A stretch of 64,000 nucleotides of DNA from Bacilli bacterium (GCA_017941235.1 JAGAWU010000024.1:615-64614); one strand, 5' to 3'. Shown: positions 4,391 through 46,137, counted from the first letter of the stretch. The notes: generated by a model not told the origin, from the sequence alone. Translations and numbers: made by a program.

Positions 4391-4506
4391 AAAAAGTTAA
4401 TACTTTTTTTGTAAAATTATGTAAAACTATACATATTTTTTTTGGCTTTTAAAAAATTCCTTTTTATTTATGGTAAAATTACATTAATAGAATAGGAGGG
4501 ATAAGA

Positions 4507-7500: not shown

Positions 7501-8124
7501 GCTAGTAATTCTGATAGTTTTGCTTTAGAAAAGGTTGTTAATTCATTTAATATAGATTTTACTAGAAGAGCAGAGGATGCTAAATATGGTTATAATTTTA
7601 AAGTTAATTTATCTTCTAAATCACGTGAATTTACTTTAAATATCAGAAAAGGAAATTTGATTACTACAGGAGTTAGTAATACATATCGTAATATGTCTAA
7701 TAATTATGATGATATGAAATTTATTGATAATAAACTTAATGTAATTGGAACGTCTTATAACTATGGTATATCTTATGATAAAGATAATTTTGTGGAAAGA
7801 AAATTAATTCTTGAAAATACTAGTAGTTTTAATAGATATACTTATGATTTAGGTTCTACTAATACAGGTGGTTATGTTGTTAATATAAAAGATGGTAAGG
7901 ATAAAACACTTGCATGGTATAATAATACTATAGATGTTAGTAATCTTGATAAAGGTGTATATTCTATGATTGTTTACACAAAGACTAAAGATGTTTCTGA
8001 TTATGGAGAAATTACAGATGTATTTGCTTCTATAAATGAAGCGAAAGCTGATATAAATGGTAAAAAGTACTATATTAGACTAAATAAAAATAGAGGCAAT
8101 CGTATAGAATTAGTTATCGAATAG
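4507..8124 (+). CDS. Secreted cell-wall hydrolase: glucosaminidase (GH73/LytD-like) with SH3-like and two Ig-like (DUF5011-like) repeats
   Basis: Signal peptide; YG.NA....NESG.G.S...KNN.FG..A.DSSP; GNK.GG.N..YASDP.WGEK; two GSYKV.YSV.D Ig-like repeats. Confidence 0.8.
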   Translation: MKKNGLLVLIFGLSFIIPFNVFALTRGEISSRNVCSKYEVAIAKEDRAGDPSSTRLEKVSCYDDYNSALSAMNSNSNMDTILLERKDGNTKIVNAKAALVNLTLRGGSVTYYYPTASSWDYDNYMVTNSSTGAVDGAFLDFDINSRRAKVKVAGYTGWVNEDAYDIVPIVWVYSIGYYRSTNDEFKHFFARDITTITNSSYGIALSKKPDYLNNSKNYFSYDGHYFYTNQYKMITDYKNGNYNNAVNKNNPYYNYYQYLPNHSKTNYSSSNINKYIRDGLGFYYTTFGNTLDIKGNFDTGNVSKLYGMGTYFIYAQEQYGANAILSFGLNRNESGDGRSKISTLKNNGFGQGAVDSSPFGSAYGFLTYQGGIYNHAQHFVNDMYENANHSYYNGGQFGNKQGGWNIVYASDPFWGEKAASYYYRFDRYFGFQDYNFYQLAINTTSVQAKASASNSARTIYTLKNKEIPIIILEEVKGDNVGGSNIWYKIVSDLNIDSNKNSYSKYPEKFDWDNSYVYVPSSYFKKINTARDGIKSFNDVYPYVENTYKYAFYNDGEKLTPKVGKSLRDTSYYYDGGLIEKKNSILLKDKYVMVYDRAVDKNGNVVSYQVTSDYKYDQKEWVSAKDISIVGGAYGKQTVIPTGYSSNVFSESRESSHIISGIYDGCFVPILEELVGSDGKTYYKVPVSLTSNSNSYGYTLKSDSDAYITSYNSEAIVKNNYPVIEVSDKQIKEGESIDLKKIVKVADEDSDILTKLQINGNVNTNIPGSYKVTYSVTDNGGLKSEKTITVTVIKDELPVIVAKDKEIFVGEDINLLDGVSASDKEDGNLINKVKIITNELNNKKTGSYKVVYSVSDSVNHNVTKTIIVTVKEKVSSPKTEDTEITKSNDNNSDKVLTQKSGEFYLNELSFDNNKKKYLISGYLIIKESNNKYSDNISYELVLRNIDTNKEKTISIDRWTNNVPFDLGTENGYDYSGSWFKGYIDFSANDLAGDYEVYMKASNSDSFALEKVVNSFNIDFTRRAEDAKYGYNFKVNLSSKSREFTLNIRKGNLITTGVSNTYRNMSNNYDDMKFIDNKLNVIGTSYNYGISYDKDNFVERKLILENTSSFNRYTYDLGSTNTGGYVVNIKDGKDKTLAWYNNTIDVSNLDKGVYSMIVYTKTKDVSDYGEITDVFASINEAKADINGKKYYIRLNKNRGNRIELVIE

Positions 8125-8182
8125 GGTAAGATTTTCTTACTCTATTTTTTTGCAAAAAAAAAATTAGTTATTAAACTAATTC

Positions 8183-8377
8183 TTATTCTTCAACTTCTTC
8201 AATTGCACTAGTTGGGCATGAATCAATTGCATCTCTTGCACTTTCTTCATCTTCAGCTGCTACTTCAGTAGCTATTACTTTAGATAATCCTTCATCATCT
8301 ATTTCAAAAACATTAGGTGCTAAAGCTGCACAAGCTCCACAGCCAATACATTGATCTTTATTAACATTAACTTTCAT
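8183..8377 (-). CDS. fer: Single-cluster 4Fe-4S ferredoxin
   Basis: CIGCGAC...AP.VF...CPTSAI; AAGGA RBS on minus strand. Confidence 0.93.
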   Translation of the reverse strand: MKVNVNKDQCIGCGACAALAPNVFEIDDEGLSKVIATEVAAEDEESARDAIDSCPTSAIEEVEE

Positions 8378-8536
8378 AGTATTACTTCCTTTCTTTTTTG
8401 TTATATCTAAAATATCATATTTATTTTAATAACACAATATTCTTTTTTATCTTTTACATTTTTAAATTTTATACTTTAAATAAATATCAATATATGTTAT
8501 GATTAATATGATAGAGTGTAGAGAGTAGGTGATAGG

Positions 8537-9463
8537 TTGGAACGAAGAATGCAAAGATATGATGAAGTCAGCGAAAATCCTAAAGTTAGTAGAAGACAAC
8601 TGAATCAAGAATTGTATAATAGGCTTAATGATAATAGTTCTGTTACTACTTATACTGACATTAATAAAGCCAACCAATATGTATTAGATGCCGCTAGTAA
8701 AAATTATAGAACTAGAGAGGGATATCAAAAGTTAAAGGAATATGGTGATTTAGTTCCTAAACCAAAAGTAAAAAAAGAGTTAGATGACTTTACTAATCTT
8801 TATAAAGAAACAGAAAATAAAGTCTATGATATTAACAGTGTTATAGAAGAAGCAAAGAGAAATAGAAAAACTACTGAAGAAGAGTTAAAAAGAAAATTAA
8901 AGAATTATAATATTTTATCTAATATTTCTGATGAAAAGATAGAAGAATATAAGAAAAATAGAAAGAAAGTAGTTAGAGCTAACGAAGATGAAATAAAAGA
9001 AATTATTAATACTATTACGACGAAGGCTATAAATGGTGAAATAGATCAAGAAACTAGTGTTAACTTATTAAGTGATTTAATGGCTACTCAACAACTTGAT
9101 ATGGTTGAAGGAATAGATCTTTCAGAAGAAAATAAAGAAGAAATCATTAAAAAGAATGAAGAAAAATTTGATAGTATTAATACTTTAAGCAGTGAAGATA
9201 TAAAAGAAGTAGAAGAAAAGAAAATAGAAGATGATTTGAAAGATAAAGAATATCAAGAAAAAAATCAGAGTAAAAATATATTTAAGGATATGGACCAGTC
9301 TTTCTACACTAGAAGTATGGACTTATCTGATAAGGATTTTGATATTGATAATGATGAAGAAAAAGTAAAAAAGAAACATCCAATTTTAAAGTTTTTTATA
9401 ATACTTATTATTATGGCTATAATTGGTGTTTTAGTTTATTATTTTAGAGATAAAATATTTTAA
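8537..9463 (+). CDS. Hypothetical acidic/coiled-coil protein with C-terminal TM anchor
   Basis: Long ORF, RBS before TTG, C-terminal FFIILIIMAIIGVLVYYF. Confidence 0.7.
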   Translation: MERRMQRYDEVSENPKVSRRQLNQELYNRLNDNSSVTTYTDINKANQYVLDAASKNYRTREGYQKLKEYGDLVPKPKVKKELDDFTNLYKETENKVYDINSVIEEAKRNRKTTEEELKRKLKNYNILSNISDEKIEEYKKNRKKVVRANEDEIKEIINTITTKAINGEIDQETSVNLLSDLMATQQLDMVEGIDLSEENKEEIIKKNEEKFDSINTLSSEDIKEVEEKKIEDDLKDKEYQEKNQSKNIFKDMDQSFYTRSMDLSDKDFDIDNDEEKVKKKHPILKFFIILIIMAIIGVLVYYFRDKIF

Positions 9464-9474
9464 AGGAGAATATT

Positions 9475-9708
9475 ATGGGATTAGAAGAAGGACGAATAAT
9501 AGAATTTGATGGTATGAATTTATGCATACTTAATGTTCAAAAAATAAATGATTTGGATTATATATATGTTGCAGAAATGGTTGATGATGATATAACAGGA
9601 AATTTTTATGTTTATAAGATTGAAAATGATAATATAGAAAAAGTTATTAATTCAGATGAATTAAAAGATATATTACCTATTTTTATTAAATCTATGAGTA
9701 GTGATTAG
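9475..9708 (+). CDS. Small acidic protein, DUF1292-like
   Basis: AAGGAG RBS; beta-strand pattern plus C-terminal 'I.SDELKDI...F' helix resembling ORFs 13467 and 32708. Confidence 0.55.
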   Translation: MGLEEGRIIEFDGMNLCILNVQKINDLDYIYVAEMVDDDITGNFYVYKIENDNIEKVINSDELKDILPIFIKSMSSD

Positions 9709-9722
9709 GAAGGAAAACAACA

Positions 9723-12700
9723 ATGAATGATATTAGTAATTTACAAAATTTATTAAATAGTGCGACTGATAATTATCAACAAATATATGATGAAATTCAA
9801 GAAATTCGGAATAGAATTTCTGATTTAGGTGATATTCCTGGTCCACATACTGATGAAAATCCACGAAATGCATCACAAGATAAATTTGATGAGGAAAAAC
9901 AAAAATTAAATGAAAAATATGAAGAGTTGAAAAATGCTGGTGAGAAAATTGCGGAAATTCAAAACAAAATTGATGAATTGGAAAAAGCTTCTAATTTGAA
10001 TCTTGTGAATGAACAACCTATTCAAGCACCAGTAATAGATAATGATGCTGCACCAGTTGTAGGTGATGAACAATCAGTTCAAACACCAGTAATAGATAAT
10101 AATTCAACACCAGTTGTAGGTGAAAGGCAACCAATTCTAACTCCAGTAATAGATAATAATGCTGCACCGGTTGTAGGTGAAGGACAATCAGTTCAAACAC
10201 CAGTAATAGATAATGATGCTGCACCAGCTGTAGGTGATGAGCAATCAGTTCAACCACCAGTAATTGATAATAATTCAACACCAACTGTAGGTGATGAGCA
10301 ATCAGTTCAAACACCAGTAATTGATAATAATTCAACACCAGTTGTAGGTGATGAACAACCAGTTCAAACATCAGTAATTGATAGTGATTCAATACCAGTT
10401 GTAGGTGAAGGACAATCAATTCAAACTCCAGTAATTGATAGTGATTCAACACCAGTTGTAGAGAAAGAACAATCAGTTCAAACACCAGTAATTGATAATA
10501 ATGATGCACCAGTTGTAGGTGAAGGACAACCAATTCAAACTCCAGTAATAGATAATAATGCTGCACCGGTTGTAGGTGAAGGACAATCAGTTCAAACTCC
10601 AGTAATAGATAATAATGCTGCACCGGTTGTAGGTGAAGGACAATCAGTTCAAACACCAGTAATTGATAGTGATTCAATACCAGTTGTAGAGAAAGAACAA
10701 TCAGTTCAACCACCAGTAATTGATAATAATGATGCACCTGTTGTAGGTGAAGGACAACCAGTTCAACTACCAGTAATTGATAATAATTCAACACCAGTTG
10801 TAGGTGATGAACAACCAGTTCAAACATCAGTAATTGATAATGATGCTGCACCAGCTGTAGGTGGTGAACAAACTATTCAACCACCAGTAATTGATAATGA
10901 TGCTGCACCAGTTGTAGGTGAAGGACAACCAATTCAAACTCCAGTAATAGATAATAATTCAACACCAGTTGTAGGTGAAGGACAATCAGTTCAAACACCA
11001 GTAATAGATAATGATGCTGCACCAGCTGTAGGTGGTGAACAAACTATTCAACCACCAGTAATTGATAATAATTCAACACCAGTTGTAGGTGATGAACAAC
11101 CAGTTCAAACATCAGTAATTGATAGTGATTCAATACCAGTTGTAGAGAAAGAACAATCAGTTCAAACACCAGTAATTGATAATAATTCAACACCAGTTGT
11201 AGGTGATGAACAAAATATTATGCAAGAATCTGGAGAAAAAGGTAATCTGCCAATAAGAGGAGATGATGGACAAATTATGGATAATAATATATTAGATAAT
11301 GATGTAGTAGTAACATCTAATGAAAATAAAACTATTCTTGAAGGTACTATTGCTCCAGGAATGCTAACACCAGAAGAAGAATTTAAAAGAGTAACTGGAC
11401 AAGAATTTGATCCTGAAAGATATGAAATTCTATATCATGGTGCTGATAACGATTTTGCTGCTGATGAGCCATATGTTCCTTATACTATTGTGGAAAAAGT
11501 GCTTGATGATGAGATTACAAAAACAGATAATAGTGAGGAAGAAATAGAAAAAGCTTATAGAACAGCTGTTGATGATGCGATTGCTTTATATAATCTACCA
11601 GAACCAACTGATAGTTATGAAAGAAAAGCTTATAATGAAGAATATATAGCTAGAAGTGAGGAAATTCGAAAAGCTTTAGAAATTTTGACACCTGAAAAAA
11701 TAAAAGAAGCAGAAGAAGAATTTAAGAGAGTAACTGGACAAGAATTTGATTTTGATAAGTATGAAATTGAATCGACTGATACTGAAAATTATGGAGAAAA
11801 AGTAGATATAAAAGATTTATCAGATGACGAGTTGGATAAAGAAATAGAAGATTTTGAAAATGCTGATACAGATATTTCTTTCACTGATCCTAAATATCAA
11901 AGATATACAGAATTAAAAAATGAAAAAGAAAAAAGATTAAATAGTAATCAAAATCATGAAGAAAAATCTTATTCTGAAATGAATGATGAAGAACTTGATG
12001 AAAGTATTAAACAAAAGTGGGCAAAATTAAATCCTATATATGGTGAAATAGACGAAAATGATCCTCGTTATATTGAATATTGGAAATTAATGCGTGAAAG
12101 AGAAAGAAGAAATAAAGAAAAAGAGGAAGCTAATAAAAAGGTTGATGAAAAAGAAAATGATGATAAAGAAAATGATGAAAAAAAGAATGATGGTTGGGAA
12201 ATTTCATCAATAGAGGTTCCTTTAGATATTCTTAAAAAGAATAAAAATAATACAAATGATAATAATAATGTAAATAGCAATAATAATCCAACTAATAATA
12301 ATACAAATAATAGCAATAATCCAGTTAATAGTAATCCAACTAATAATAATGTTCCTGTTAATAATTCTTTAAGTAATGAGACTGTAAAGATTATGTTTAT
12401 GAATGATGGTAAATTAATTCCTAATTATGGAAACATTGTGATTGAAAAAGGTGGAACTATTAAACATGGTCCTGTTATTGATCCTGTTCCTTTAAATAAG
12501 AAAGGTAAACCAAAGAAGTTAACTGCTAAAACTTTCTCTCATTGGGAAGATCAATATGGTAATGTAGTGGACTTCAGTCAACCAATTACTGAGGATATGA
12601 TTTTAACTGCTGCTTATAAGTTTGATAAGAAAAAAGCAGTTTCTATTGGTTTAGGTGCTGCTATTGGAGCACTTGCGTATGTTGCTGATCTTGCAATCCC

Positions 12701-30800: not shown

Positions 30801-32702
30801 ATGAGAAATGAAGTTTTAAGTGGATATCAAGGTTATGGAATGCCAACACCAGAAGAAGAATTTAAAAGAGTAACTGGACAAGAATTTGATCCTGAAAGAT
30901 ATGAAATTCTATATCATGGTGCTGATAACGATTTTGCTGGTGATGATCCATATGTTCCTTATACTATTGTGGAAAAAGTGCTTGATGATGAGATTACAAA
31001 AACAGATAATAGTGAGGAAGAAATAAAAAAAGCTTATAGAACAGCTGTTGATGATGCGATTGCTTTATATAATTTACCAGAACCAACTGATAGTTATGAA
31101 AGAAAAGCTTATAATGAAGAATATATAGCAAGAAGTGAGGAAATTCGAAAAGCTTTAGAAATTTTAACACCTGAAAAAATAAAAGAAGCAGAAGAAGAAA
31201 TTGCTAGAAAGACTAAAAATAGGTCTAATACTAATTTTGATGATGTTACTGAAAATGAAAATGTAATCCAACCTGAGGTGTCTTCTGAAGATGAAAATGT
31301 GGTTGAACCTGAAATTTCTAATGAAGAGAATGAGGTAAAAGAAGAGACTAATACAAATGATTCAAAGACTAAAAATAAATATATAATTGACCCTAATGGT
31401 ATTATAGTTAATTTTCCTTCTGATAATGAATTTAAAGATGCTATTAGTAATTATATCAATAATACAAATGAAAATACTGATCATGAAGAAATTATAAGAA
31501 ATAATGATGATTTAGATAATAAATTTGAAAAATATGTACCAAAAACTCATAAAAACCAAAGAGTTGGAGTTTTAAAAAGGGTTGTTTCAAGGTTTAACTT
31601 AATACCTTTAATTGCAACTGCTGCTGCACTTGTTGTTTCTGCCTTTGGAAGATCTTCTATTAGTAAGGCTTCTAAGGATAAAGAAATAAAAGAATTTACT
31701 AAGAATTCAGCTTCTTATTCAATTTCTACTGAAGATAAGCAAGAACCAATATATGAGACTAGAGAAGAAGCTATACAGAAAACTATTGATGGAATGAGAA
31801 CAGGAGATAAAATTCATGTTGATAGTGGAGTAGATTATCATTATTCAAGTGATTATGAATATGCTGGGTATGATAGAACTGGTAATTTTGGTTCTGAAAT
31901 AAGAAAAGATGGGGATTACACATTAGATTATGTTTCTATAATTGATCCTTCAACTGGTTTAATTAGAAATGTTGAATATGATAAAGGCAAAAATGTAGAA
32001 GACTTTATTAATGATACAGCTAAAGATATAGGAATTGATCGTGATAAATTAGAAGTTAAAATTGAAATAGGTGGACCTCAAACAGGATGGATTGATTATG
32101 ATGATTATATATCTTGTATCGATAATGGAAGTATTAAACAAGAGGTTGTTGAAACAAAAATTGTTCCTGGAACACAAATAGTTGGAAAACAATATAATTT
32201 TGATTCTAAAGTTACATTTATTGATGAGAATGGTAAGAGTGCTAAAGTTGATTTTAAGAAAGATGATGGCTCTTATTATAAAGTTGGAGAGAATGTTACT
32301 GCTTCTAATGGTCAAACATATAGAATTGATAAATTTGATATTGATACTGAAACTAAGACTGAGAAAGTAGATAGACCTTCTAAAATGTCTATTCCTCACA
32401 ACAAAATAACATTTGGACTTTCAAATATTTCATTATTGGAAGCTTTAGGTGCTGCTGCAATATCACTTATTGGTATTCCTTTAACTTATAGAAGAAAAAC
32501 AGAAGAAAAGGAAATGACAGATGTTGAATTTAGGAATATAGTAGGATTTGGTGGTTATGAGCCTAAGAAAAATGATCCTGAAAGTTATTATGGTAGTTGG
32601 TGGGATGGTTTAACTCATAACAAGGAAACAATTAAATTTATTCCTGATGATAGTAAAGATACATTTTCGTTTGATGATTTTGAGAATAAGAAAACTAGAT
32701 AA
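30801..32702 (+). CDS. Large acidic protein with two hydrophobic segments; shares a 121-aa module with ORF 9723
   Basis: AGGAG RBS; TTGACT-17bp-TATGAT promoter upstream; hydrophobic LIPLIATAAALVVSAF and LLEALGAAAISLIGIPL. Confidence 0.75.
   Translation: MRNEVLSGYQGYGMPTPEEEFKRVTGQEFDPERYEILYHGADNDFAGDDPYVPYTIVEKVLDDEITKTDNSEEEIKKAYRTAVDDAIALYNLPEPTDSYERKAYNEEYIARSEEIRKALEILTPEKIKEAEEEIARKTKNRSNTNFDDVTENENVIQPEVSSEDENVVEPEISNEENEVKEETNTNDSKTKNKYIIDPNGIIVNFPSDNEFKDAISNYINNTNENTDHEEIIRNNDDLDNKFEKYVPKTHKNQRVGVLKRVVSRFNLIPLIATAAALVVSAFGRSSISKASKDKEIKEFTKNSASYSISTEDKQEPIYETREEAIQKTIDGMRTGDKIHVDSGVDYHYSSDYEYAGYDRTGNFGSEIRKDGDYTLDYVSIIDPSTGLIRNVEYDKGKNVEDFINDTAKDIGIDRDKLEVKIEIGGPQTGWIDYDDYISCIDNGSIKQEVVETKIVPGTQIVGKQYNFDSKVTFIDENGKSAKVDFKKDDGSYYKVGENVTASNGQTYRIDKFDIDTETKTEKVDRPSKMSIPHNKITFGLSNISLLEALGAAAISLIGIPLTYRRKTEEKEMTDVEFRNIVGFGGYEPKKNDPESYYGSWWDGLTHNKETIKFIPDDSKDTFSFDDFENKKTR
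30837..31199 (+). repeat. Dispersed repeat copy 2 (363 bp, ~98% identical to 11358-11720)
   Basis: Direct comparison. Confidence 0.95.
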
Positions 32703-33024: not shown

Positions 33025-33726
33025 ATGTCTTTTCATTATAGACATAGAAAGATTATTATCATATGTATTTTATTTTTTACTTTTTGTATTTCTATTTTCT
33101 TTTTTTATTATAAAAACTCTTATAAAAAGAAGAATAGGAGTAGAATTGTTCAAAGTAAAAAAATAGTTAAGGATAATAATAAAATTAGTGTTAAGAAAGA
33201 GAATAGCCATAATAAAAATATTTTTAAAGTTGATATTAAGGGACAAATTGTTTTTCCTGGAATATATGAGCTTGAAGAAGATAGTAGGGTTATTGATGTA
33301 ATTAATAAAGCAGGTGGTTTAACTGAAGATGCTGATACTACTGTAATTAACTTAAGTAAAAAGATAAAAGATGAAATGGTTATTATTGTTTATAGTAAGG
33401 AAGAAGTTAATGATTTTAAGAAGACTAAGGAAATTGAGAAAGAAACTTTAAGTAAATGTGCTCAAAAAGATAATGATTCTGTAATAAACGATGCATGTAT
33501 AGACAGTGAAAAAGGAAGTGTTCAGGATAATTCTTTATTAATAAATATTAATACTGCTTCTTTAGATGATCTTAAAACTTTATCTGGAATTGGTGAAGCA
33601 AAGGCTAAAAGTATAATAGATTATAGAAATTCTAATGGATTATTTAATAGTATAGAAGATTTAAAAAATGTTGATGGTATAGGTGAATCTCTTTATGATC
33701 AAATTAAGAACTCTATTACTATATGA
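33025..33726 (+). CDS. comEA: Competence protein ComEA
   Basis: N-terminal TM, SLBB domain VDIKGQI..PGIYEL...SRV.DVI.KAGG, HhH ININTAS...L.GIG..KA..II.YR. Confidence 0.95.
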   Translation: MSFHYRHRKIIIICILFFTFCISIFFFYYKNSYKKKNRSRIVQSKKIVKDNNKISVKKENSHNKNIFKVDIKGQIVFPGIYELEEDSRVIDVINKAGGLTEDADTTVINLSKKIKDEMVIIVYSKEEVNDFKKTKEIEKETLSKCAQKDNDSVINDACIDSEKGSVQDNSLLININTASLDDLKTLSGIGEAKAKSIIDYRNSNGLFNSIEDLKNVDGIGESLYDQIKNSITI

Positions 33727-35794
33727 TAAGTTTTATTATTTAATTTTATTATTAACTATTATTATTACTGTTGTTAGATTTTATTTTCCTAATAAAAGTT
33801 TTATTTCTCCTAGTTCGAATATAATTGAAGGAACTATAGTTAGTATTAAATATGATGGTAATAATTTAAACTTATTACTAAAAGTTAATAATCGTGAAAA
33901 CATTATTTGTAATTATTATTTTAAGAAATATAGTGAGTATTCAAGTATTAAGAAAAAATTATTATTAGGTCAAAAGATTAGACTATATGGAAATATCAAT
34001 ACTATTTCTAATAATTCTGTTGATAATACTTTCTCTTATAAAAAGTATTTAAAAATTAAACATATTAATTATATATTTAGTGCTAAAAAAATAGTAGTAA
34101 TAAATAATAGAATTGGTCCTTTTTATATAATAAAAAATTTAATACTTAAGTATTTAAGTTTTTTTAAGTCGGGCTCTTATATTAAAATGCTTCTTTTAGG
34201 TGATACTAGTTTTGTTTCTAATAGGGTTATAGATAGTTTTAGAAAAAATGGTATTAGTCACTTGTTTGCCATATCAGGAACACAAGTGACTGTTTTAGCA
34301 GAGTTTATAGTTAGTAATTTAAAAAGAGTTAGTGTTAAAGAAAAAAATAGGTATATAGTAGTTAATATTTTTATATTCTTTTATATGTTTTTGACGGGCA
34401 GTCCTCCTGCAATACTTAGAGCAGTTTTATTCTTTTTACTTTCTTCAATTAACAAATATAATTATTTTTATGTGACTAATCTTAATTTATTTATTTTAAC
34501 ACTATGTATTACACTTTTAATTAATCCGTATTATGTATATGATTTGGGATTTCTATATTCCTATATTATTAGTATGGCCTTAATAATGTGTTCTAAAATT
34601 CTTGATGATAAGAAATATTTTTATTCATTATTTTTAACTTCATTAATTTCTTTTTTAGTTAGTATTCCTATAACTTTATATAATTTTTATGAGCTTAATT
34701 TTATGAGTATAATTTATAATCTATTTTATGTTCCTTTTGTTAATAATTTATTATTTCCTCTAGCAATTATTTCTATATTTTTTTATCCTTTTGATTATGT
34801 TCTAAGTTTTTTTATTTATATTTTAGAAAGTAGTTCTTTGTTTTTAAGTAGTGTTAGTTTTGGAAGAATTGTATTTCCAAAATTAAGTATTTTATATTAC
34901 TTGCTATATTATGTCTTGCTTTTTGTAATATATAAATATAATAAAAAAATTTGGTGGTTTATTCTTGCTTTAGTTTTGATTATTCATTTTAATTTTTATA
35001 CTATTTTTAATTATGATTATGTTTATTATTTTGATGTAAAACAAGGTGATTCTATATTTTTTCATAGTACTAATTATAATATTCTTATTGATACTGGAGG
35101 TATTGAAAAGCATTATCAGTATTCTTGGATGAAAAGAGAAAATAGTAGTTCTATATCTATTAATTTACTTATCCCATATTTTAAGTCTAAAGGAATAAAG
35201 AATATAGATTATTTAATACTTAGTCATGGGGATTACGACCACATGGGAGAAGCTATTAATTTAGTTAATAATTTTAAAGTAGAAAAAGTAATCTTTAATT
35301 GTGGTGAGTTTAATGATTTAGAAAAAGAATTAATTAAAATATTAGATAAGAAAAAGATAAAATATTATTCATGTATTAAAGAATTAAATATTGATAAGAA
35401 TAAATTATATTTTTTGCAAACAAAAGAATATGATAATGAAAATGATAATAGTAATGTTATATATACTGAACTTAATGGTTATAAGTTTATGTTTATGGGA
35501 GATGCAAGTGTTACTACTGAAAAAGAGATATTAGATAAATATAATTTACCTAATATAGATGTATTAAAAGTAGGTCATCACGGAAGTAAGACAAGTAGTA
35601 GCAAAAGTTTTATTAATGAAATTAATCCTAAGTATTCAGTTATAAGTGTAGGCAAGAACAATAGATATGGGCATCCAAACAAAGAAGTATTAGAAAATTT
35701 AGATAAATCAAAAATATATAGAACGGATCAAGATGGAAGTATTATGTTTATGATTAAAAATAATAAGTTAAGAATTGAAACATGTAGTCCATAG
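33695..35794 (+). CDS. comEC: DNA uptake channel ComEC/Rec2 with C-terminal metallo-beta-lactamase domain
   Basis: GISHLFAISG competence domain, multiple TM helices, DV.QGDS, IDTGG, SHGDYDH, KVGHHGS, YGHP; directly after comEA. Confidence 0.95.
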   Translation: MIKLRTLLLYDKFYYLILLLTIIITVVRFYFPNKSFISPSSNIIEGTIVSIKYDGNNLNLLLKVNNRENIICNYYFKKYSEYSSIKKKLLLGQKIRLYGNINTISNNSVDNTFSYKKYLKIKHINYIFSAKKIVVINNRIGPFYIIKNLILKYLSFFKSGSYIKMLLLGDTSFVSNRVIDSFRKNGISHLFAISGTQVTVLAEFIVSNLKRVSVKEKNRYIVVNIFIFFYMFLTGSPPAILRAVLFFLLSSINKYNYFYVTNLNLFILTLCITLLINPYYVYDLGFLYSYIISMALIMCSKILDDKKYFYSLFLTSLISFLVSIPITLYNFYELNFMSIIYNLFYVPFVNNLLFPLAIISIFFYPFDYVLSFFIYILESSSLFLSSVSFGRIVFPKLSILYYLLYYVLLFVIYKYNKKIWWFILALVLIIHFNFYTIFNYDYVYYFDVKQGDSIFFHSTNYNILIDTGGIEKHYQYSWMKRENSSSISINLLIPYFKSKGIKNIDYLILSHGDYDHMGEAINLVNNFKVEKVIFNCGEFNDLEKELIKILDKKKIKYYSCIKELNIDKNKLYFLQTKEYDNENDNSNVIYTELNGYKFMFMGDASVTTEKEILDKYNLPNIDVLKVGHHGSKTSSSKSFINEINPKYSVISVGKNNRYGHPNKEVLENLDKSKIYRTDQDGSIMFMIKNNKLRIETCSP

Positions 35795-35809
35795 AAAGGA
35801 GAATAATAA

Positions 35810-36631
35810 ATGAATGAAATAAAAGAATATACAGAAAAAGTTTTTGAAGATATAAAACATATAGATGAATTTGGAAATGAATATTGGTTAGCAAGAGAAT
35901 TAGGGAAAATATTAGAATATGGTGAATACAGAAAGTTTTTACCATCAATTAAAAAAGCAATGATCTCATGTGAAAAGAGTGAGCAAAATGTTGAGAACCA
36001 TTTCGCCCAAATGGACGTAATGGTGGATATAGGTTCAAACGCGAAAAGAAAGCTAAAAGATTTTAGATTAACTAGATATGCATGTTATTTAATAGTTCAA
36101 AACTCTGATTCCTCAAAATCAGTAGTGGCTCTTGGACAAACTTACTTTGCCATCCAAACAAGGAAACAAGAACTAAGTAAAAAAGAATATAGTGAACTAA
36201 CTGAGAATGAGAAAAGACTATATCGAAGAAATCAAGCAAGAAAAGGAAACTATAATTTAAATAAAACAGCAGTTAATAGTGGAGTAAAAGATTTAGCCAG
36301 ATTTCATAATGCAGGATATAAAGGACTTTATAATGGTGAAACTGCAGATGATATTTTTAAAAGAAAAAATTTAAGGTATAGAGAAGATATATTAGATAAT
36401 ATGGGTAGTGAAGAACTCGCTGATAATATATTTAGAATTGCTCAAACAGATGCTAAATTAAAAAGAGATAATGTAGATAATGAATATACTGCAAATTCTA
36501 TTCATTATGAAGTAGGTAAAAAGGTAAGAAATACAATTAAAGAATTAGGAGGTACCATGCCAGAAAATTTACCAACACCTGAAAAAAGTTTAAAAGAATT
36601 GGAAAAAGAGAGGAAAAAGTTAAAAGAATAG
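35810..36631 (+). CDS. dinD: DNA damage-inducible protein D family
   Basis: FEDIKHIDE.G.EYW.AREL, LTRYACYLIVQN.D, QTYFAIQTRKQE, FHNAGYKGLY, LGGTMPENLPTP. Confidence 0.9.
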   Translation: MNEIKEYTEKVFEDIKHIDEFGNEYWLARELGKILEYGEYRKFLPSIKKAMISCEKSEQNVENHFAQMDVMVDIGSNAKRKLKDFRLTRYACYLIVQNSDSSKSVVALGQTYFAIQTRKQELSKKEYSELTENEKRLYRRNQARKGNYNLNKTAVNSGVKDLARFHNAGYKGLYNGETADDIFKRKNLRYREDILDNMGSEELADNIFRIAQTDAKLKRDNVDNEYTANSIHYEVGKKVRNTIKELGGTMPENLPTPEKSLKELEKERKKLKE

Positions 36632-36660
36632 ATAAATAGGTGTTATAATAATTATGGTAG

Positions 36661-37335
36661 GTGATTGTGTTGGGATATATTGCATCTAATTATAAAAAAA
36701 GTAACTATAAAATTGTTCTGTCTGAGCAAGTATATACTAGATTGCTTGGATTAATTAATTTATGTGGTTTAAATATAAATGGAGAATATGATGAATTTGG
36801 TTCGTTATTTTATGGAAAATTTGAATCAAATGGTGTTATTTTTTTAGAAAGTCCGAGCGAAGTACAAGACTATCAAATTCAATCTAAATCATTTTCAATG
36901 ACTGATTCCATGTGGAAAGAATTAGAAAGTAAAATTGATGATGATAATTGCAGAATTTTTGCTCATTTTCATACACATCCATATTTTCAAGATGATAGAA
37001 ATAGATTGTATTCTACGGAAGATATATCATTTTATCAAAATCTTGCTATTGGATTAAATAGCAATCGAAAGAATGAAGACCAAATAATAGTATTGGGATG
37101 TATGGCTTCGGTAAGTGGTAGAAATATTTCGTCTTTGGATGATATTTCATTTGTTTATTATGATATGAGGCAACATGAGATGATTTACGTTCCATCTATT
37201 TTTGTAAAAATAGGTAATCAAGAGTATGAATTGGAACATGTTCCAGATGAGTATTCATATAACGGAGTATCTTTTCCGATAGACAGAACATTATTAGAAA
37301 TTAATACTGATGAATCACAAAAAAGACATCGATAA
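36661..37335 (+). CDS. JAB/MPN (JAMM)-like metalloprotein
   Basis: E.G..FYG followed by HFHTHP-x10-S-x2-D; own extended -10 (TGTTATAAT) upstream. Confidence 0.55.
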   Translation: MIVLGYIASNYKKSNYKIVLSEQVYTRLLGLINLCGLNINGEYDEFGSLFYGKFESNGVIFLESPSEVQDYQIQSKSFSMTDSMWKELESKIDDDNCRIFAHFHTHPYFQDDRNRLYSTEDISFYQNLAIGLNSNRKNEDQIIVLGCMASVSGRNISSLDDISFVYYDMRQHEMIYVPSIFVKIGNQEYELEHVPDEYSYNGVSFPIDRTLLEINTDESQKRHR

Positions 37336-37356
37336 AAAATTGATGTCTTTTCTTTG
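37320..37356 (+). terminator. Rho-independent terminator
   Basis: AAAAGACATC/GATGTCTTTT inverted repeat followed by T-rich tract. Confidence 0.65.
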
Positions 37357-37396
37357 AATAAATTCTTTCATTCGACTTACTTTTTGACAATCACCA

Positions 37397-37606
37397 CATG
37401 GGGATTACGACCACATGGGAGAAGCTATTAATTTAGTTGATAATTTTAAAGTAGAAAAAGTAATCTTTAATTGTGGTGAGTTTAATGATTTAGAAAAAAA
37501 ATTAATTAAAGTATTAGATAATCTAAAAAATTCTAAAATATATAGAACAGACCATGATGGGAGTATTATGTTTAAAATTAAAAATAATAAATTGAAAATA
37601 GAATAA
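37397..37606 (+). pseudogene. comEC: Displaced comEC 3' fragment with a 348-bp internal deletion
   Basis: 37397-37521 matches 35225-35349 (3 mismatches in 125 bp); remainder matches the comEC tail ~35696-35779 at about 82%. Confidence 0.92.
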
Positions 37607-37648
37607 ATAAAAAAGTGTGATATAATAATTATAAGGTGTGATAATAAT

Positions 37649-38527
37649 ATGGTAGATGTAAAATTGTTAAAACTACAGCATTTTTTCGAAGTCGATTTTA
37701 AAATAAAAAAAGAAATGCTTGATATAGCTCCACCAAGTGATAATTTATATGCTGATGTCGAAAAATATTCGAATAGTGTTAATGATTCCTTAATATATAT
37801 ATTTAGTGAATTAAAATGTGTAACTGCAGATATTTTTGGATTTGAATCACAAATCATGAGCAAAATAACTGAGATGGAAAATATTATTAAAAATAATTTT
37901 TATTCATGTGGTTATGATATTGATAAATTACGTTTGTTCTATAAAAATTTTGTTAGTAATATGGAATTAGATTTTATTAATGCTGTAAAGGAAGAATGCG
38001 TTGGATATACCTTTGGCGGTGTTTCTTCTGCAAAAAATGCAAAGACAATTAATGAAATATTACATTTTATGCATTCATTTATTTTAAATAATGAACAAAT
38101 TTTGCAATCTATTCCGTTGATTGATAAAAAGGAAAATGATTATAAATATTCAATATCGTTAAGAGGGGTTAAAGTACCTGTATTTGAACAATTATTAGCA
38201 CTATTTCCCAATGATTTAGATGTTGGATGGACTGATATGATTGCTATTAATGAAAGAAAGTTATTGATGATGGTTAGAGATAGAGGGCATGCCCTAACGA
38301 TAGAAATAACTTTAAATTTACAAACAGCTAGGATCGAATACTTTATTCCAAAAATATGTAATGTTGATATGGTAAACAATTTACCAGGAATTAATAAAGT
38401 TAATCAAGATAGTGTTGGAGCTACAGGTATTATTGAAATACCTATAAGTGATTTGCCAAATACTTTATTTAGCTTTATCTCTAAAGTTCCTATGGATAGT
38501 GATATGATTATAAGTAATATACGTTAG
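37649..38527 (+). CDS. Hypothetical protein (292 aa)
   Basis: ORF with AAGGTG RBS, extended -10 TGATATAAT at 37618, and terminator at 38526-38555; no family recognised. Confidence 0.75.
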   Translation: MVDVKLLKLQHFFEVDFKIKKEMLDIAPPSDNLYADVEKYSNSVNDSLIYIFSELKCVTADIFGFESQIMSKITEMENIIKNNFYSCGYDIDKLRLFYKNFVSNMELDFINAVKEECVGYTFGGVSSAKNAKTINEILHFMHSFILNNEQILQSIPLIDKKENDYKYSISLRGVKVPVFEQLLALFPNDLDVGWTDMIAINERKLLMMVRDRGHALTIEITLNLQTARIEYFIPKICNVDMVNNLPGINKVNQDSVGATGIIEIPISDLPNTLFSFISKVPMDSDMIISNIR

Positions 38528-38589
38528 AATTATCTGTTTGATAGTTCTTTTTTTTATTTCTAAATTCGTATGCATAGCTTATATCACTA

Positions 38590-38626
38590 CATTGTGATTA
38601 TGATCATATGGTAGATATTATAATTT
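38590..38626 (+). pseudogene. Heavily decayed second comEC 3' remnant
   Basis: CAT TGT GAT TAT GAT CAT ATG GTA GAT (HCDYDHMVD) versus comEC HGDYDHMGE; same upstream ATCACYA as the 37397 copy. Confidence 0.65.
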
Positions 38627-38720
38627 GTAAACAAGATAATGAGTATGTAATTAAATATTGTTCTGATGATAGGATTATTGCTAGAGAGTACGAATTAGTA
38701 TGATATAATATTTAAAGGAG

Positions 38721-39377
38721 ATGGTATTAATGGTGATAGAAAAGAGTAATTTTATAATTTATTATGATGAAGAACTTTCTTATATTCCAGAAGTTGTTGA
38801 ATATTTGGAATTAAGAATGGATGAAATTATGAGTTTTTTTAAATTGGATTCATTAAGCTCAAAGAAAAAAATAATTGTATATAATGATTTGGAATTATAT
38901 AAAAGACATATTGAAAAGTTCTATCAATATCAAGATTATATGAGAGCTGATACTAATGATGGTAATATTAATTTATTATCTGTGGAAGCAGCTCATAATA
39001 CAAAAGAACATTCACAAATGACAGTAGATGAATTAAAGAGTACTATTCTTCATGAGTTTGTTCATATATGTCAGCAAGAAGCTCAAAAAGAAACGATAGA
39101 TAATGAAATTATATGGTTTTGGGAAGCACTTGCAACTAACTTGGGAAATCCTGAGAAATTTTCAAAGATTCTAATAACTGCTACTAATGATGAGATTAAT
39201 AATTTTATTTTTCTACCATATAATTATCCTATAGCTTTTACAATTGGTAATTATATACTTGAGAATTATACTAATGAAGAAATCTTAGAATATGTAAAAT
39301 ATCCTACAAAGTTATTAAACGATTCTGAGCTTATTTTAAATGATGCACGAAGATGGAGTAATAGTAAAAGATTATAG
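38721..39377 (+). CDS. HEXXH zinc metallopeptidase-like protein (gluzincin / peptidase MA-like)
   Basis: ILHEFVH followed by WFWEALA third-ligand motif; own extended -10 at 38701. Confidence 0.7.
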   Translation: MVLMVIEKSNFIIYYDEELSYIPEVVEYLELRMDEIMSFFKLDSLSSKKKIIVYNDLELYKRHIEKFYQYQDYMRADTNDGNINLLSVEAAHNTKEHSQMTVDELKSTILHEFVHICQQEAQKETIDNEIIWFWEALATNLGNPEKFSKILITATNDEINNFIFLPYNYPIAFTIGNYILENYTNEEILEYVKYPTKLLNDSELILNDARRWSNSKRL

Positions 39378-39459
39378 TGTTTTGTTTGAATAAGATGGGT
39401 TTTGATTGACAAACTGTGTAAAGTGTGGTATAATGTATACAATTTTAAGGGGGATAAAA

Positions 39460-42400
39460 ATGAAAATTGGTATTGATATTGATGGTGTTTTAAATTATAT
39501 AGAACAGTTTCAATTAGAACATGGTATTCCATGGTTTAAAGAAAGAGGATATGAAGTAGTAAATCCTAATGGTTATGATATTAAGGATATTTTTGGATGC
39601 TCTGATGAAGTAAGAAGAGAATTCTGGAAATCTTATGCTTCAGGTGGAAAAACAATATTAGATGCTTTATTATTTGATTTAGCAAAAAATGCTAAGATGA
39701 GACCTGGTGTAAAAGAATTACTTGATAAATTAGATCAAGATGGAGATAAAGTTTATATTATAACAGAGAGATATGGTACAAATAAAAAAGGTGCTATTGG
39801 ATCTTTTAATAAAAAACTAGTTTATGACTGGTTAAAAAATAATGGTGTTAATATACCTAAAGAAGATATTATATTTGTACCTGAAGGTAAAACAAAAAAA
39901 GATATTTATAAAGAAAAGAATATAGATGTAATATTAGAAGATAAAGTTGATAATATTAAAGCTATTGAAGAAATAGATGATTTATATGCTATTGTTTTTA
40001 ATGCTGGATTTAATAAAGATTATAATAATGATAAAGCATATAGGGTTGATTTACCTATTGAAGCTTATAGTAAAATAAAAGAAATAGAAAAAATAAAAGT
40101 ACAAAAAGAAAAAGATAAAAAAATAGTTAGACCAAATCAATTTAGTTCAACTACTGGTATTCCTTCAGTTGATAAAGTATGGAGACAATATTATACTGAA
40201 CAAGAAGAGAATATTGAAGTACCTAAGATGAAGATGATTGATTATTTAAAGGAACGTGCAAAAGCGTTTCCAGATGCAATTATGATAGAAGATGATTTTG
40301 GTCATAAATATACATATAAAGAATTTTTATATGAACTTGTGCCTCAATATGCTAAAGCATTTAAAAACTATGGGGTTAAACCTAATGAACCTGTAGTAAT
40401 TGCTCTTCCTAATGTTATTGCTACTCAAGCTGCTAAATTTGCATTAAATGAAATAGGTGCTATTCCTGTTATGGCTAATCCATTATCTAATGAAGATGAA
40501 TTTGGTAGATACTTATCATTAGAAGTTGATGGTAAAAAACCTAGAGTTATGTTAATGTTTAATAGAAGTTTTGATACTGTTAAAAAGGCAATTAAAAATA
40601 ATAATGTTTCATTAGAACATATTGTTAATATTGGTGTTAATTCAGATTTTGATTTTCCATATAATTTAGGATATAAGCTTACTCAAAGTAAATTTGATCC
40701 TAAAGATAAGGATTTAAAAGAAGTTCAAATTATTTCTAGTTTAAAAGAATTTTTAGATGGTGCTAAGAATGTAGAATCTTATGATAAGTCTTCATATCAT
40801 GAAAATGATACTGCTGTTATTTATTTTACTGGTGGTACGACAGGAAAAGAAAAAGCTGTTGAATGTACTAATGAGAATGCAATTGCTATTGCAAAACAGT
40901 TTACAATTTTAATTAAGAATGGTCAGATAAATGATGTTACTGTAAATGCGATGCCTTGGTTCCATGTTTTTGGAGATAACCAAATATTCTACTTTGCTGC
41001 TTGTAATGGTATGACTAACTATACAATGCCAAAATTCAACAGAAAAGATGTCGATAAGATGTTTAAAAAAGATATAGTTAATTATAATGGTGTTCCAGCT
41101 TTCTTAGTTGCTACCCATGCTAATCTTACAGATAAATCTAGATATGAATCTGTCAAATATATGATTTCTGGTGGTGCTGCATTACCATATGCTTCTCAAG
41201 TTGCTATTAATAAAGCATTAAAGAAGAGTGGTTCAAAAGCTGTTGTTGAAGTTGGATATGGTATTACTGAAGGTGCTGGTGGAGTTTGTTATACTCTAGT
41301 TGGTGCAGATGAAGCTAATTGTATTGGTATTCCAACACCAGGAACTAATATGAAAATTGTAAAACCTGGTACTAATGAAGAATTAACTTATGGTCAAGAT
41401 GGTGAAATTTGCTTTAGTGGTCCATCAGTTATGAAGGCATATTTAAATAATCCAGAAGAAACTGCAAAAAGTTTAAGAGTTCATGAAGATGGTAATGTTT
41501 GGTTCCATTCTGGTGATATGGGAAAAGTTAAAGAAAATGGGTTGTTCTATTTTAGTGATCGTATTAAAAGAATGATAATTGTAAGTGGAGAAAATGTATA
41601 TCCAAATAGAATAGAGAAAGAGATAATTGATAACTTTGGTGATATTGTTGATCAATGTTATATAATTCCTAAAAGTGATGCAGCAAAAGGTGAAGTCCCA
41701 GTTGCAAAAGTTTTACTAAAAAATGGTGTTACTCCAAGTTTAGAAGTTAAAAATGCAATATTAAATACTATTAAAGAAAAATTTAAGAATAAAAAATACT
41801 GGCCTACAGAATTAGATTTTATTAAATCAGTTCCTCAAACTAAAATGAGTAAAGCTGATTATAAAAAATTAAATGATCCTGAATTAGTCATTGATATAGA
41901 AGAAAAAATTGATACTAATACGTCAAAACATACTAAATTAAAAGATAATTATGCAGGTAATAGATTTTATAAAGCATTTTCTGATATATATTCACCAATT
42001 TATAAATCTAAATTATTAGGTAGGGATGTTACATATATTGGTGAAGAGAACTTACCTAAACAAGGTTCAGGTATTATTACAATGAATCATTTAAATGCAC
42101 AAGATCAAAATGCTGTTTTAGCAAGTGTTGATAGGATTGTATCTTTACCTGCTAAAAAAGAGTATTTTGATAGTAAACTTTCAAATTATTTTATGAGTAA
42201 AATGGAAATGATTCCTGTTGATAGATATGGTGATATTGAATATGCTAAGGAATGGATTAAAGGGTTAATAACAACTATTCCATTACAAGACTTTGAAACT
42301 CAAAATGAAATAGTTAAAAATATAAATTCTTATGTAGATTCAGTTGATTCTAAGGAAATAAAAAATCCAACTAATTTGGTTAATAATATTATAAATTATA

Positions 42401-42975
42401 TTAATTCTAAATCTTATGGTTATGTATCTGATGAAGCTGTTAGAAGAATTTCTAATATGCCAACATCTGGTATTGAAAATGGTTATGGTAGAGCACTTAA
42501 AATTAATGAAGAAGTTGCTAAAAGACTTAATGCAGGTAGATTAGTTGCTGTATTCCCTGAGGGAACTAGAAATAAAGATTTTTCTGAGACAGGAACTTTA
42601 TTACCTTTCCATAGTGGTGCTGTATACTGGGCTAGAGATTCTTATTCTCCTATAATACCTACTGCAGTAACTGGAGAACATAAACGTGGTGGAAGTATTT
42701 TAGTAAGATCTGGAGAGCCAATGAAGATAGATAGTGATTTATCTGATTCAGATGTAAAAGATGCTACTAGAGAGTTAGAAAATAGAGTTTATGAACTTGT
42801 TTTATTAAACTTAGTTGATCAAGATAATGTAGAAAATAATAAAGCTTTAAAGAATGCTATTGAATATCTAAAAAACAAAAATGATTCTAAGAGTAAAGCA
42901 TTACTTGAAATTATTTTTAAAGAATTAAGCATTAATGATATAGAAAGAAATAAAGAGTTTTTAAAGAGAATATAA
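39460..42975 (+). CDS. Three-domain fusion: HAD phosphatase (NT5C-like) + AMP-binding acyl-CoA/ACP ligase + PlsC-type acyltransferase
   Basis: IGIDIDGV, ITER, ILEDK (HAD); YFTGGTTGKEK, PWFHVFG, GYGITE, HSGDMG, DRIKRMII.SGENVYP (ANL); NHLNAQD, FPEGTR, PIIP (PlsC); GGGG RBS before ATG 39460; TTGACA-TATAAT promoter. Confidence 0.9.
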   Translation: MKIGIDIDGVLNYIEQFQLEHGIPWFKERGYEVVNPNGYDIKDIFGCSDEVRREFWKSYASGGKTILDALLFDLAKNAKMRPGVKELLDKLDQDGDKVYIITERYGTNKKGAIGSFNKKLVYDWLKNNGVNIPKEDIIFVPEGKTKKDIYKEKNIDVILEDKVDNIKAIEEIDDLYAIVFNAGFNKDYNNDKAYRVDLPIEAYSKIKEIEKIKVQKEKDKKIVRPNQFSSTTGIPSVDKVWRQYYTEQEENIEVPKMKMIDYLKERAKAFPDAIMIEDDFGHKYTYKEFLYELVPQYAKAFKNYGVKPNEPVVIALPNVIATQAAKFALNEIGAIPVMANPLSNEDEFGRYLSLEVDGKKPRVMLMFNRSFDTVKKAIKNNNVSLEHIVNIGVNSDFDFPYNLGYKLTQSKFDPKDKDLKEVQIISSLKEFLDGAKNVESYDKSSYHENDTAVIYFTGGTTGKEKAVECTNENAIAIAKQFTILIKNGQINDVTVNAMPWFHVFGDNQIFYFAACNGMTNYTMPKFNRKDVDKMFKKDIVNYNGVPAFLVATHANLTDKSRYESVKYMISGGAALPYASQVAINKALKKSGSKAVVEVGYGITEGAGGVCYTLVGADEANCIGIPTPGTNMKIVKPGTNEELTYGQDGEICFSGPSVMKAYLNNPEETAKSLRVHEDGNVWFHSGDMGKVKENGLFYFSDRIKRMIIVSGENVYPNRIEKEIIDNFGDIVDQCYIIPKSDAAKGEVPVAKVLLKNGVTPSLEVKNAILNTIKEKFKNKKYWPTELDFIKSVPQTKMSKADYKKLNDPELVIDIEEKIDTNTSKHTKLKDNYAGNRFYKAFSDIYSPIYKSKLLGRDVTYIGEENLPKQGSGIITMNHLNAQDQNAVLASVDRIVSLPAKKEYFDSKLSNYFMSKMEMIPVDRYGDIEYAKEWIKGLITTIPLQDFETQNEIVKNINSYVDSVDSKEIKNPTNLVNNIINYINSKSYGYVSDEAVRRISNMPTSGIENGYGRALKINEEVAKRLNAGRLVAVFPEGTRNKDFSETGTLLPFHSGAVYWARDSYSPIIPTAVTGEHKRGGSILVRSGEPMKIDSDLSDSDVKDATRELENRVYELVLLNLVDQDNVENNKALKNAIEYLKNKNDSKSKALLEIIFKELSINDIERNKEFLKRI

Positions 42976-43075
42976 AAAATTAATTTACATATTTATAAAA
43001 AAGTACTTTTGATGTACTTTTTTTTCTTTAAAAAATAGGTGAAATATGTTATCATTATGATGAGGATATGATGTT

Positions 43076-46137
<3,062 letters not shown>

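Follow-up and report, generated by a model that had tools for sequence, protein, structure and literature searches.

Small gene cassettes without a recombinase stacked behind comEC, at the apparent integration site of phages with a large serine recombinase, in uncultured gut Bacilli

The comEC locus of a Bacilli bacterium (GCA_017941235.1, JAGAWU010000024.1:615-64614; the whole 64,000-nt stretch is referred to here as the window) raises the question of how a series of genes, each preceded by a piece of the same competence gene, came to be lined up behind it. comEC itself (33683..35794, plus strand, as are all array features of the window given below) is an intact open reading frame (ORF) of 703 residues that matches the Competence (1.6e-40) and Lactamase_B (5.3e-18) families. 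Residues 1-514 of the protein are of the genus' own type and residues 515-703 are of a horizontally spread type, the mobile tail, with a jump between 5' and 3' identity at H515. Downstream of the gene lie three co-oriented units, each of which begins at the CA of the HGDYDH His codon, and the decay of the units grows with distance from comEC. We propose that these units probably form a tandem array of small recombinase-less cassettes, built at the CA of this codon by a large serine recombinase (LSR) that temperate phages, and not the cassettes, carry.

The first unit (35225..37396, 2172 nt) is a tail cassette. It comprises the working replacement tail of comEC (35225-35794), a DinD/Bro-N-like gene (35810-36631; Pfam 2.5e-9, PADLOC PDC-S13 1.7e-99), a JAB-like gene (36661-37335), a terminator formed by the hairpin GACATC..GATGTC and a T-run (37325-37356), and a 27-nt P arm of type B (37370..37396; ATTCGACTTACTTTTTGACAATCACCA). 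This arm is the same as the left half of a phage attP, and it is the sole copy in the assembly. The second unit opens with a displaced comEC tail, the right arm of an attR (37397..37606), in which residues 515-555 are fused in frame to residues ~668-701. The resident and displaced copies begin at the identical CAT. The segment 35225-35349 is repeated at 37397-37521 (125 nt, 98%), and 35685-35779 is repeated at 37509-37603 (95 nt, 83%; 16 of the 95 nt differ). The offsets of the two parts, 2172 and 1824, differ by 348 nt, which makes copy 2 a comEC tail that has lost this length from its interior, in frame. The deletion sits between imperfect 13-nt repeats, and the deleted tail is still a 63-aa ORF (37415-37606). 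No further copy of the comEC tail was found in the whole 1.56-Mb assembly (25.9% G+C). The displaced tail is followed by a cargo gene of 292 aa (37649..38527), a terminator and a decayed motif.

The third unit starts at a decayed attR (38562..38611), made of a remnant of a type A P arm (38562-38589) and 22 nt from the start of a tail (38590-38611; HCDYDHM, CATTGTGATTATGATCATATGG). Next come the last 30 codons of a YhcG-type gene (38612..38703, ending in IICKQDNEYVIKYCSDDRIIAREYELV and the stop), which hold an extended -10 element resembling TGATATAAT ahead of the variable gene of the unit, an ORF for a 218-aa HEXXH protein (38721..39377). Immediately before this gene, at 38711-38723, one contig of run X4 has ~444 additional bases relative to the window. 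The 292-aa and 218-aa proteins matched no family in domain and defence searches. A homologue of the former comes after a comEC tail fragment in a different genus (G006), and homologues of the latter sit in the arrays of G001 and G046. The YhcG 3' remnant has counterparts of identical type in G003 and G219, and the full-length gene is present in L107. A junction at 6081 in G003, initially taken to join two phage arms (P and P'), was dropped: it is a decayed tail start fused to the YhcG 3' remnant, as in unit 3.

The gene order is reproduced by contigs from three other studies (sheep and cattle gut), and a 3519-nt contig from one of these studies covers 36470-39987, bridging the junction at 37397. 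For this species, 20 metagenome runs of 12 studies were listed. The arrangement is not a misassembly. The first-pass annotation, made from the window alone, had described three co-oriented units starting at one CAT and decaying downstream, with a decayed remnant at 38590; sequence comparison bears out both points. Its count of 15 differences in 84 nt for the tail of copy 2 was close, although the 348-nt deletion went unmentioned. As for the cargo of unit 1, its dinD call agrees with Pfam and PADLOC, while the JAB-like assignment is a lead only (Atlas 0.95, no Pfam match).

The nature of the junctions is indicated by phages. P arms of equal length, 27 nt, occur as type A (ATTCGTATGCATAAACGCTAGTCACCA) and type B in the fetched loci of relatives, and a type C was taken from a metagenome contig; all three end in the same junction nucleotide. 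Type B followed by CAYGG (32 nt) has exact matches in two IMG/VR contigs. One phage locus (L072) carries a predicted attP of 56 nt, ATTCGACTTACT-TTTTGACAATCACCA-CA-TGGAGGTATGTGGTT-AGTAAGTCGAAT, which is symmetric about CA and has 12-nt outer inverted repeats equidistant from it. This site adjoins a gene for a 473-aa protein with Resolvase (1e-32), Zn_ribbon_recom (2.5e-7) and Recombinase (1.6e-6) domains, whose closest solved structure is the catalytic domain of the TP901-1 integrase (1e-20); a CI/LexA-like repressor also lies beside it. The domain set, the dyad of ~50 bp about a central dinucleotide and the hybrid attL and attR sites at the target are those of a putative LSR system. Six IMG/VR loci match the L072 recombinase at 65-100% identity, two of them being the recombinase itself. 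All six have ..CA-TGG.. beside the recombinase gene, and the five that read as attP have ..CCA-CA-TGG... The dyad layout recurs in four more phage loci and in a G293 phage rebuilt from its attL and attR. The lysis genes of the phages point toward the P arm, which is adjoined by a lysis gene or a divergent promoter and not by cargo.

In G293, comEC residues 4-517 adjoin a 63%-identical LSR (attL); a separate contig carries the attR, whose tail is native-type. L089 and L104 are likewise attL sites, in which the comEC 5' part is followed by CA, the P' arm and the LSR. These hybrid sites show that phages of the L072 group evidently integrate at the CA of His515, splitting comEC. The attB-type site of the window (35198..35250) has a left arm that codes for ..DYLILS and a right arm that codes for HGDYDHMG; the symmetry of the phage attP and the attL and attR of the lysogens would place its centre at the CA of 35225-35226, in the CAT codon of His515. 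Since the P arm is the left half of attP and prophages occupy the same CA, the junctions between motif and tail are best read as attR-type, as is the hybrid at 37370-37420, with the recombinase acting in trans. The first-pass annotation had pointed to a junction of ATCACYA with CATGG and had suggested a recombinase in trans; the former proves to be the end of a recombinase half-site, and the phage LSR, with the motif in its attP and its prophages at that CA, fits the latter. Assemblies of two other genomes are broken exactly at the comEC His515 codon (G030:C13 end and G030:C14 start; G019:C10 end) and have native-type tails, as expected if lysogens and non-lysogens were mixed in the sample. 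Two comEC-targeting phages encode, beside the lysis genes, a 352-aa protein with a YMDD reverse-transcriptase motif, read by eye from the translation (L091 10140-11198; L094 9844-10902, minus strand).

Is the P arm more than a scar? Its mean pairwise identity is 0.93 for type B and 0.78 for type A, compared with 0.39-0.48 for the 30 nt upstream and 0.52 for third codon positions of the adjoining tail. These values show an arm that is apparently held under constraint. A promoter function was considered, as type B has TTGACA 16 nt before the TATGAT of the DYD codons in many relatives. It was dropped: the window has GATTACGAC at that place, type A has no -35 element, and a scan found 40 sites against 40.4 expected.

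The same architecture recurs in relatives. A first search of 40 relatives gave extra comEC fragments beginning at residues 512-517 in several genera. In the fetched loci, tblastn placed the start of 28 of 28 displaced fragments within residues 505-520; 27 are preceded by a terminator, a T-run and the 27-nt motif, ..TCACCA, directly before CAYGG, and the remaining fragment has a contig end 20 nt away. Of the 301 species sampled, 43 carry the attR signature (TCACCACAYGGNGAYNNNGAYCAY, at most one mismatch), and of the 214 genera, 37 do; its reverse, used as control, gave no hit. The 40 loci were fetched in two batches, and the second 20 were selected for at least two tail matches; prevalence is therefore to be read from the 43 of 301 and not from the locus set, a biased sample in which 23 of 41 entries have a P-arm junction. 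By eye, about 100 of the 301 genomes have at least two tail matches, an upper bound because paralogous metallo-beta-lactamase proteins score too. Away from comEC, L095 (G191:C37:4487-6118, minus strand) is a second unit made of a tail, YhcG and a 398-aa gene. Its tail is fused in frame to 54 unrelated codons (..VYKLDS joined to HGDYDH), and the unit lies 2.4 kb from a partial serine recombinase where the contig ends; it might mark a secondary site of insertion.

The tails themselves have moved between hosts. Identity to the ComEC of this genome was scored separately for residues 1-514 and for the tail. In 22 genomes including this one, the resident tail is at least 70% identical (about 70-90%) and the 5' parts are 31-55% identical. 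Tail identity is 36-67% in 13 other genomes, two of which are of the same genus and have 52-53% in the 5' part versus 40-43% in the tail. Identity changes abruptly at His515. A quick tree places 48 mobile tails (rows) in one clade (SH-aLRT 100), apart from six native tails. The displaced modules are conserved comEC ends with a mean column identity of 86%, unlike the variable toxin tips of Rhs and contact-dependent inhibition (CDI) orphan arrays. Three expectations of the first-pass annotation for related genomes were thus borne out: variable cargo after comEC, fragments that all begin at the HGDYDH codon, and incongruence, which is strong, between the 5' and 3' parts of the gene.

The cargo follows a constant plan. 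Among the 22 mobile-tail genomes, 18 have as the first gene after the tail one for a YhcG/DUF1016 PD-(D/E)XK nuclease or for a DinD-like protein, as against 1 among the 13 others; proteins of the YhcG type match PADLOC PDC-S02 (2.2e-61). This first gene begins 12-17 nt past the tail stop codon or overlaps the stop. Second genes are variable (transglutaminase-like, MA-peptidase-like, FGase-like, a PRAI-HAD fusion), and the terminator adjoins the P arm. Units range from 1.0 to 3.8 kb. The same cargo, terminator and P-arm sub-variant are found together in different genera (G184 and G276; G252 and G046), which shows that cassettes, to judge from these shared units, travel as wholes across genera. 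A Pfam scan of 15 cargo proteins (14 from 11 genomes and that of the 260-aa gene of G003) found no recombinase, an LSR query by tblastn had no match in the 41 oriented loci, and there was no phage gene in roughly 30 mapped units.

A second class of cassettes is bounded by both phage arms. It is known from three contigs only (L105, L106, L107), in which tail cassettes are followed by a complete P-CA-P' site. In L107 this site is followed by two single-gene cassettes, each built as P' arm, promoter, gene, terminator and P arm, that carry an esterase and a helix-turn-helix/zinc-ribbon membrane protein; a displaced tail follows both. The contigs of L105 and L106 end inside the gene of the first such cassette. 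The 41 oriented loci held no P' arm, no leader of this class and no P arm C; the genome of the window, too, has neither the P' arm nor the leader. All four half-site combinations exist, as judged from the junctions assembled here. Every internal junction of L107 has the P arm on its left, as expected if each incoming circle recombines with the sole site bearing the comEC left arm. In three GTDB contigs labelled Treponema, Oscillospiraceae and Clostridia (L101, L102, L103), the same 23-nt P' arm lies by non-phage genes (glyoxalase-like, MatE), and after the arm come ~80 nt of conserved leader that include an extended -10 element. The left side of L101 is a small gene of the metallo-beta-lactamase fold, cut at ..TVILSHG. 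Unless the bins are mixed, this recombinase family may use HxHxDH codons of other genes and hosts.

The building block of the array is the tail cassette: a substitute 3' end for comEC (189 codons), a gene for a YhcG-like PD-(D/E)XK nuclease or a DinD/Bro-N-like protein, in most cases a single variable gene under its own promoter, a terminator and the 27-nt P arm. Internal junctions, in the order P arm, CA and tail, are attR-type, and the junction within the working comEC is attB-type. The proposed mechanism would run as follows. A cassette would leave as a circle bearing a P-tail site, or ride with a phage that excises via a more distant attR, and would recombine with any chromosomal site having the comEC left arm. 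The newcomer would land beside the comEC 5' part, supply a working tail and shove older tails downstream to decay, with RecA-driven gene conversion between tails overlaid on the site-specific stacking. We infer the insertion and stacking by an LSR from the half-sites at the junctions; the constraint on the P arm and the units common to several genera indirectly suggest that the recombinase of a functional element moves the cassettes.

Several observations weigh against this mechanism, and some of them suit an alternative in which RecA alone stacks the units. On that account one or a few old phage integrations left scars of P arm and tail. Whole units then spread and accumulated solely through homologous recombination of imported DNA, for which the long comEC tails supplied the homology, with a left crossover in one tail and a right crossover in the next, and no further part for the recombinase. 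The first 125 nt of the two window copies are far more alike than the rest, and comEC is itself a DNA-uptake gene. Resident and displaced tails of one genome group together in the quick tree (G171 and G085), and tail lineage showed no link to cargo type, with equally low scores from shuffled labels in 377 and 284 of 500 trials. Tails that do not cluster by the following gene and are homogenised within genomes imply that homologous recombination reshuffles the units, and RecA-driven exchange or gene conversion between tails certainly contributes to the array. The cassettes lack a recombinase, a close relative of the LSR was found in only one of the 301 genomes (G293), and the genome of the window has neither an LSR nor a P' arm. 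In G276 (L051, G276:C1, oriented 4170-10620), five comEC tail fragments start at ~ residue 645-653 behind a common ATATGTACTAACTAC; a P arm is retained by two of the five, along with ~30 nt from the beginning of the tail, and is missing from the other three. These fragments are either a 'mini-tail' subclass of cassettes or the outcome of recurrent deletion.

Other points on this side concern the proposed mechanism itself. All genomes are metagenome bins. P arm types A and C had no exact match to a phage source, which was found for type B only. No phage or free circle with a tail cassette was found: in IMG/VR, a single-tail query gave no mobile-type tail, and a profile of 23 tails gave one distant match (34%). 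The six phage loci held no cargo genes, only LexA-like matches. Three contig-only runs yielded no trustworthy excision or circle joint, as all joints listed have sides of 20-25 nt, an unreliable length, and the raw-read run gave 4 reads. Furthermore, textbook LSRs recombine attP with attB and have no activity on the product sites, according to the part of the source used here (bioRxiv 10.1101/2025.05.02.651858); integration of a P-tail circle into attB or attL would therefore need a directionality factor or a relaxed enzyme.

Homologous recombination as the sole force nevertheless appears unlikely to us. A passive scar is not expected to be better conserved than its flanks and the silent sites of the tail, nor to exist in three types of equal length with the same junction nucleotide. 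P-P' junctions and cassettes bounded by P' offer no tail homology. Outside the 23-nt HGDYDHMG core, native tails (36-49% protein identity) are too diverged to recombine, although many genera have had theirs replaced.

It is considerably less probable that each unit is the wreck of a full prophage or island that once carried its own comEC tail and recombinase. Phages do integrate at the comEC site, and the decay of integrated elements to recombinase-less cis-mobilizable elements (CIMEs) is the usual streptococcal route in the portion of the literature at hand (PMC5704250). However, the mapped units are devoid of phage genes, narrow in size and constant in build, from the short gap between tail stop and first gene to the terminator abutting the P arm, and the known phages have no tail and carry a lysis gene or divergent promoter, not cargo, beside their P arm. 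Finally, a local duplication of the comEC 3' end in one strain, or an assembly artefact, might be read from two near-identical 125-nt stretches 2.2 kb apart at which contigs of other runs break, but it is already refuted by the same architecture in 37 genera, the bridging contig and the phage half-site directly before copy 2.

With the stacking of cassettes by a phage LSR as the preferred reading, a broader and more tentative one, which we hold to be possible but rather less probable than otherwise, regards the locus as an integron-like gene-capture platform run by the phage serine recombinase. The comEC left arm would be a fixed dock for any circle with a P arm, whose other half-site may be a comEC tail or a phage P' arm, and tail cassettes would serve as 'repair patches'. 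The newest cassette would always come first and would set whether ComEC is whole (tail) or shortened (P' cassette or phage). With the borrowed phage enzyme, tail cassettes would thus restore an uptake gene that phages inactivate, and their nuclease- or DinD-type defence candidates would be read through from comEC during competence.

How does the array compare with known systems? The closest are the composite islands of the staphylococcal cassette chromosome (SCC), the Dehalococcoides ssrA islands and CIME accretion. SCC arrays include recombinase-less pseudo-SCC members. In SCC (SCCmec and composite arrays, with CcrA/CcrB), too, serine-recombinase elements enter one site of a conserved single-copy gene, leave the gene working, pile up in tandem and carry variable cargo. 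SCC differs in its target, the last few codons of rlmH; the comEC site is 189 codons before the stop, so that each unit must bring a working gene end of 570 nt. SCC elements measure 3-60 kb versus 1-4 kb for the units here, and use the CcrAB pair in place of a single 473-aa phage integrase whose phages split comEC.

The role of the Ccr serine recombinases in SCC is described in the part of a paper on Dehalococcoides consulted here (PMC3146451). Also described there are ssrA islands in tandem behind one gene: a repeated stretch from the 3' end of that gene bounds each island and is immediately preceded by a short conserved motif, and the integrase is a CcrB-like serine recombinase (PMC3146451). 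Fifteen islands without an integration module are read there as cis-mobilizable, moving by accretion (PMC3146451). In that account, the repeat is a 20-bp piece of an RNA gene, whereas it is a protein-coding module of 189 codons here, and most islands own an integration module, whereas no examined unit here has a recombinase and the enzyme is phage-borne.

In streptococci, the excerpt of PMC5704250 used here describes CIMEs that are recombinase-less, keep their att sites and lie in tandem with integrative and conjugative (ICE) or integrative and mobilizable (IME) elements at a target 3' end, to be moved in cis. Likewise, the scanned cargo here has no integration or transfer genes of its own, and the units have att bounds in direct orientation, in tandem at one target. 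According to that excerpt, the streptococcal system differs in its tyrosine recombinases and in att sites with a common core, by which attR stays a target; it also differs in its conjugative transfer and in being made of decayed ICEs rather than 2-kb units of constant build. The Streptococcus pyogenes prophages Phi1207.3 and Phi10394.4 use serine recombinases at a specific dinucleotide inside the comEC coding sequence (PMC4260502). Their site is GA and their host is another one, and the portion of that paper at hand describes no replacement comEC end or cassette stack (PMC4260502).

Integrons are similar in that a fixed platform takes up small recombinase-less cassettes at the first position, the newest nearest the platform; each cassette ends in a recombination site, and distal cassettes are less well kept. 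They differ in the IntI tyrosine recombinase, which is not found by the array, and in the folded attC, in place of which there is half of a serine-recombinase attP; moreover, the platform here lies inside a gene that the cassette must complete. Where an integron has intI, attI and attC, the 41 oriented loci showed no recombinase of any kind next to comEC; the array behaves like an integron without being one. What is distinctive here is the second cassette class bounded by both phage arms and the small, uniformly built cassettes. A full-text literature search found no description of such an arrangement at comEC, which is not proof that none exists. The candidate capture system of the first-pass annotation does have precedents: islands lacking a recombinase are described as accreting in tandem at a serine-recombinase site in SCC and in Dehalococcoides (PMC3146451). 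The interpretation given in that annotation is largely supported overall; repeated insertion at one codon of units with comEC tails is the probable route, and homologous recombination also shapes the array.

Some neighbours of the array deserve mention. The remainder of the strain-specific stretch up to tgt (39378..44982, plus strand) holds a 1189-aa and a 623-aa gene; no att half-site was recognised in it, and its membership of the array is therefore not claimed. The two genes (39406-44947) encode a fusion of an AMP-binding enzyme with an acyltransferase, preceded by a promoter matching the consensus at 12 of 12 positions (39406-39434), and a hybrid histidine kinase/response regulator. tgt (44983-46137) is a backbone gene of the genus, and in two species of the same genus comEC adjoins tgt directly. 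Upstream of comEA and comEC, at 30801-32702, the window encodes a 633-aa protein without a match in Pfam, PHROGs or PADLOC.

It is thought that mobile elements target competence genes to escape deletion by transformation, the conflict over 'chromosomal curing' in the part of the source available (bioRxiv 10.1101/2024.08.13.607808). The contested comEC site described here appears to be a gene-collecting locus throughout a family of uncultured Bacilli from the ruminant gut. Half of the ComEC nuclease domain, the C-terminal one, seems to move horizontally as a module, together with defence candidates, between phage recombinase half-sites. If cassettes do move as proposed, a serine recombinase would here underlie the capture of small cassettes, and the locus would also yield a compact enzyme of this kind, whose 56-nt attP is defined and whose attB is conserved and protein-coding.

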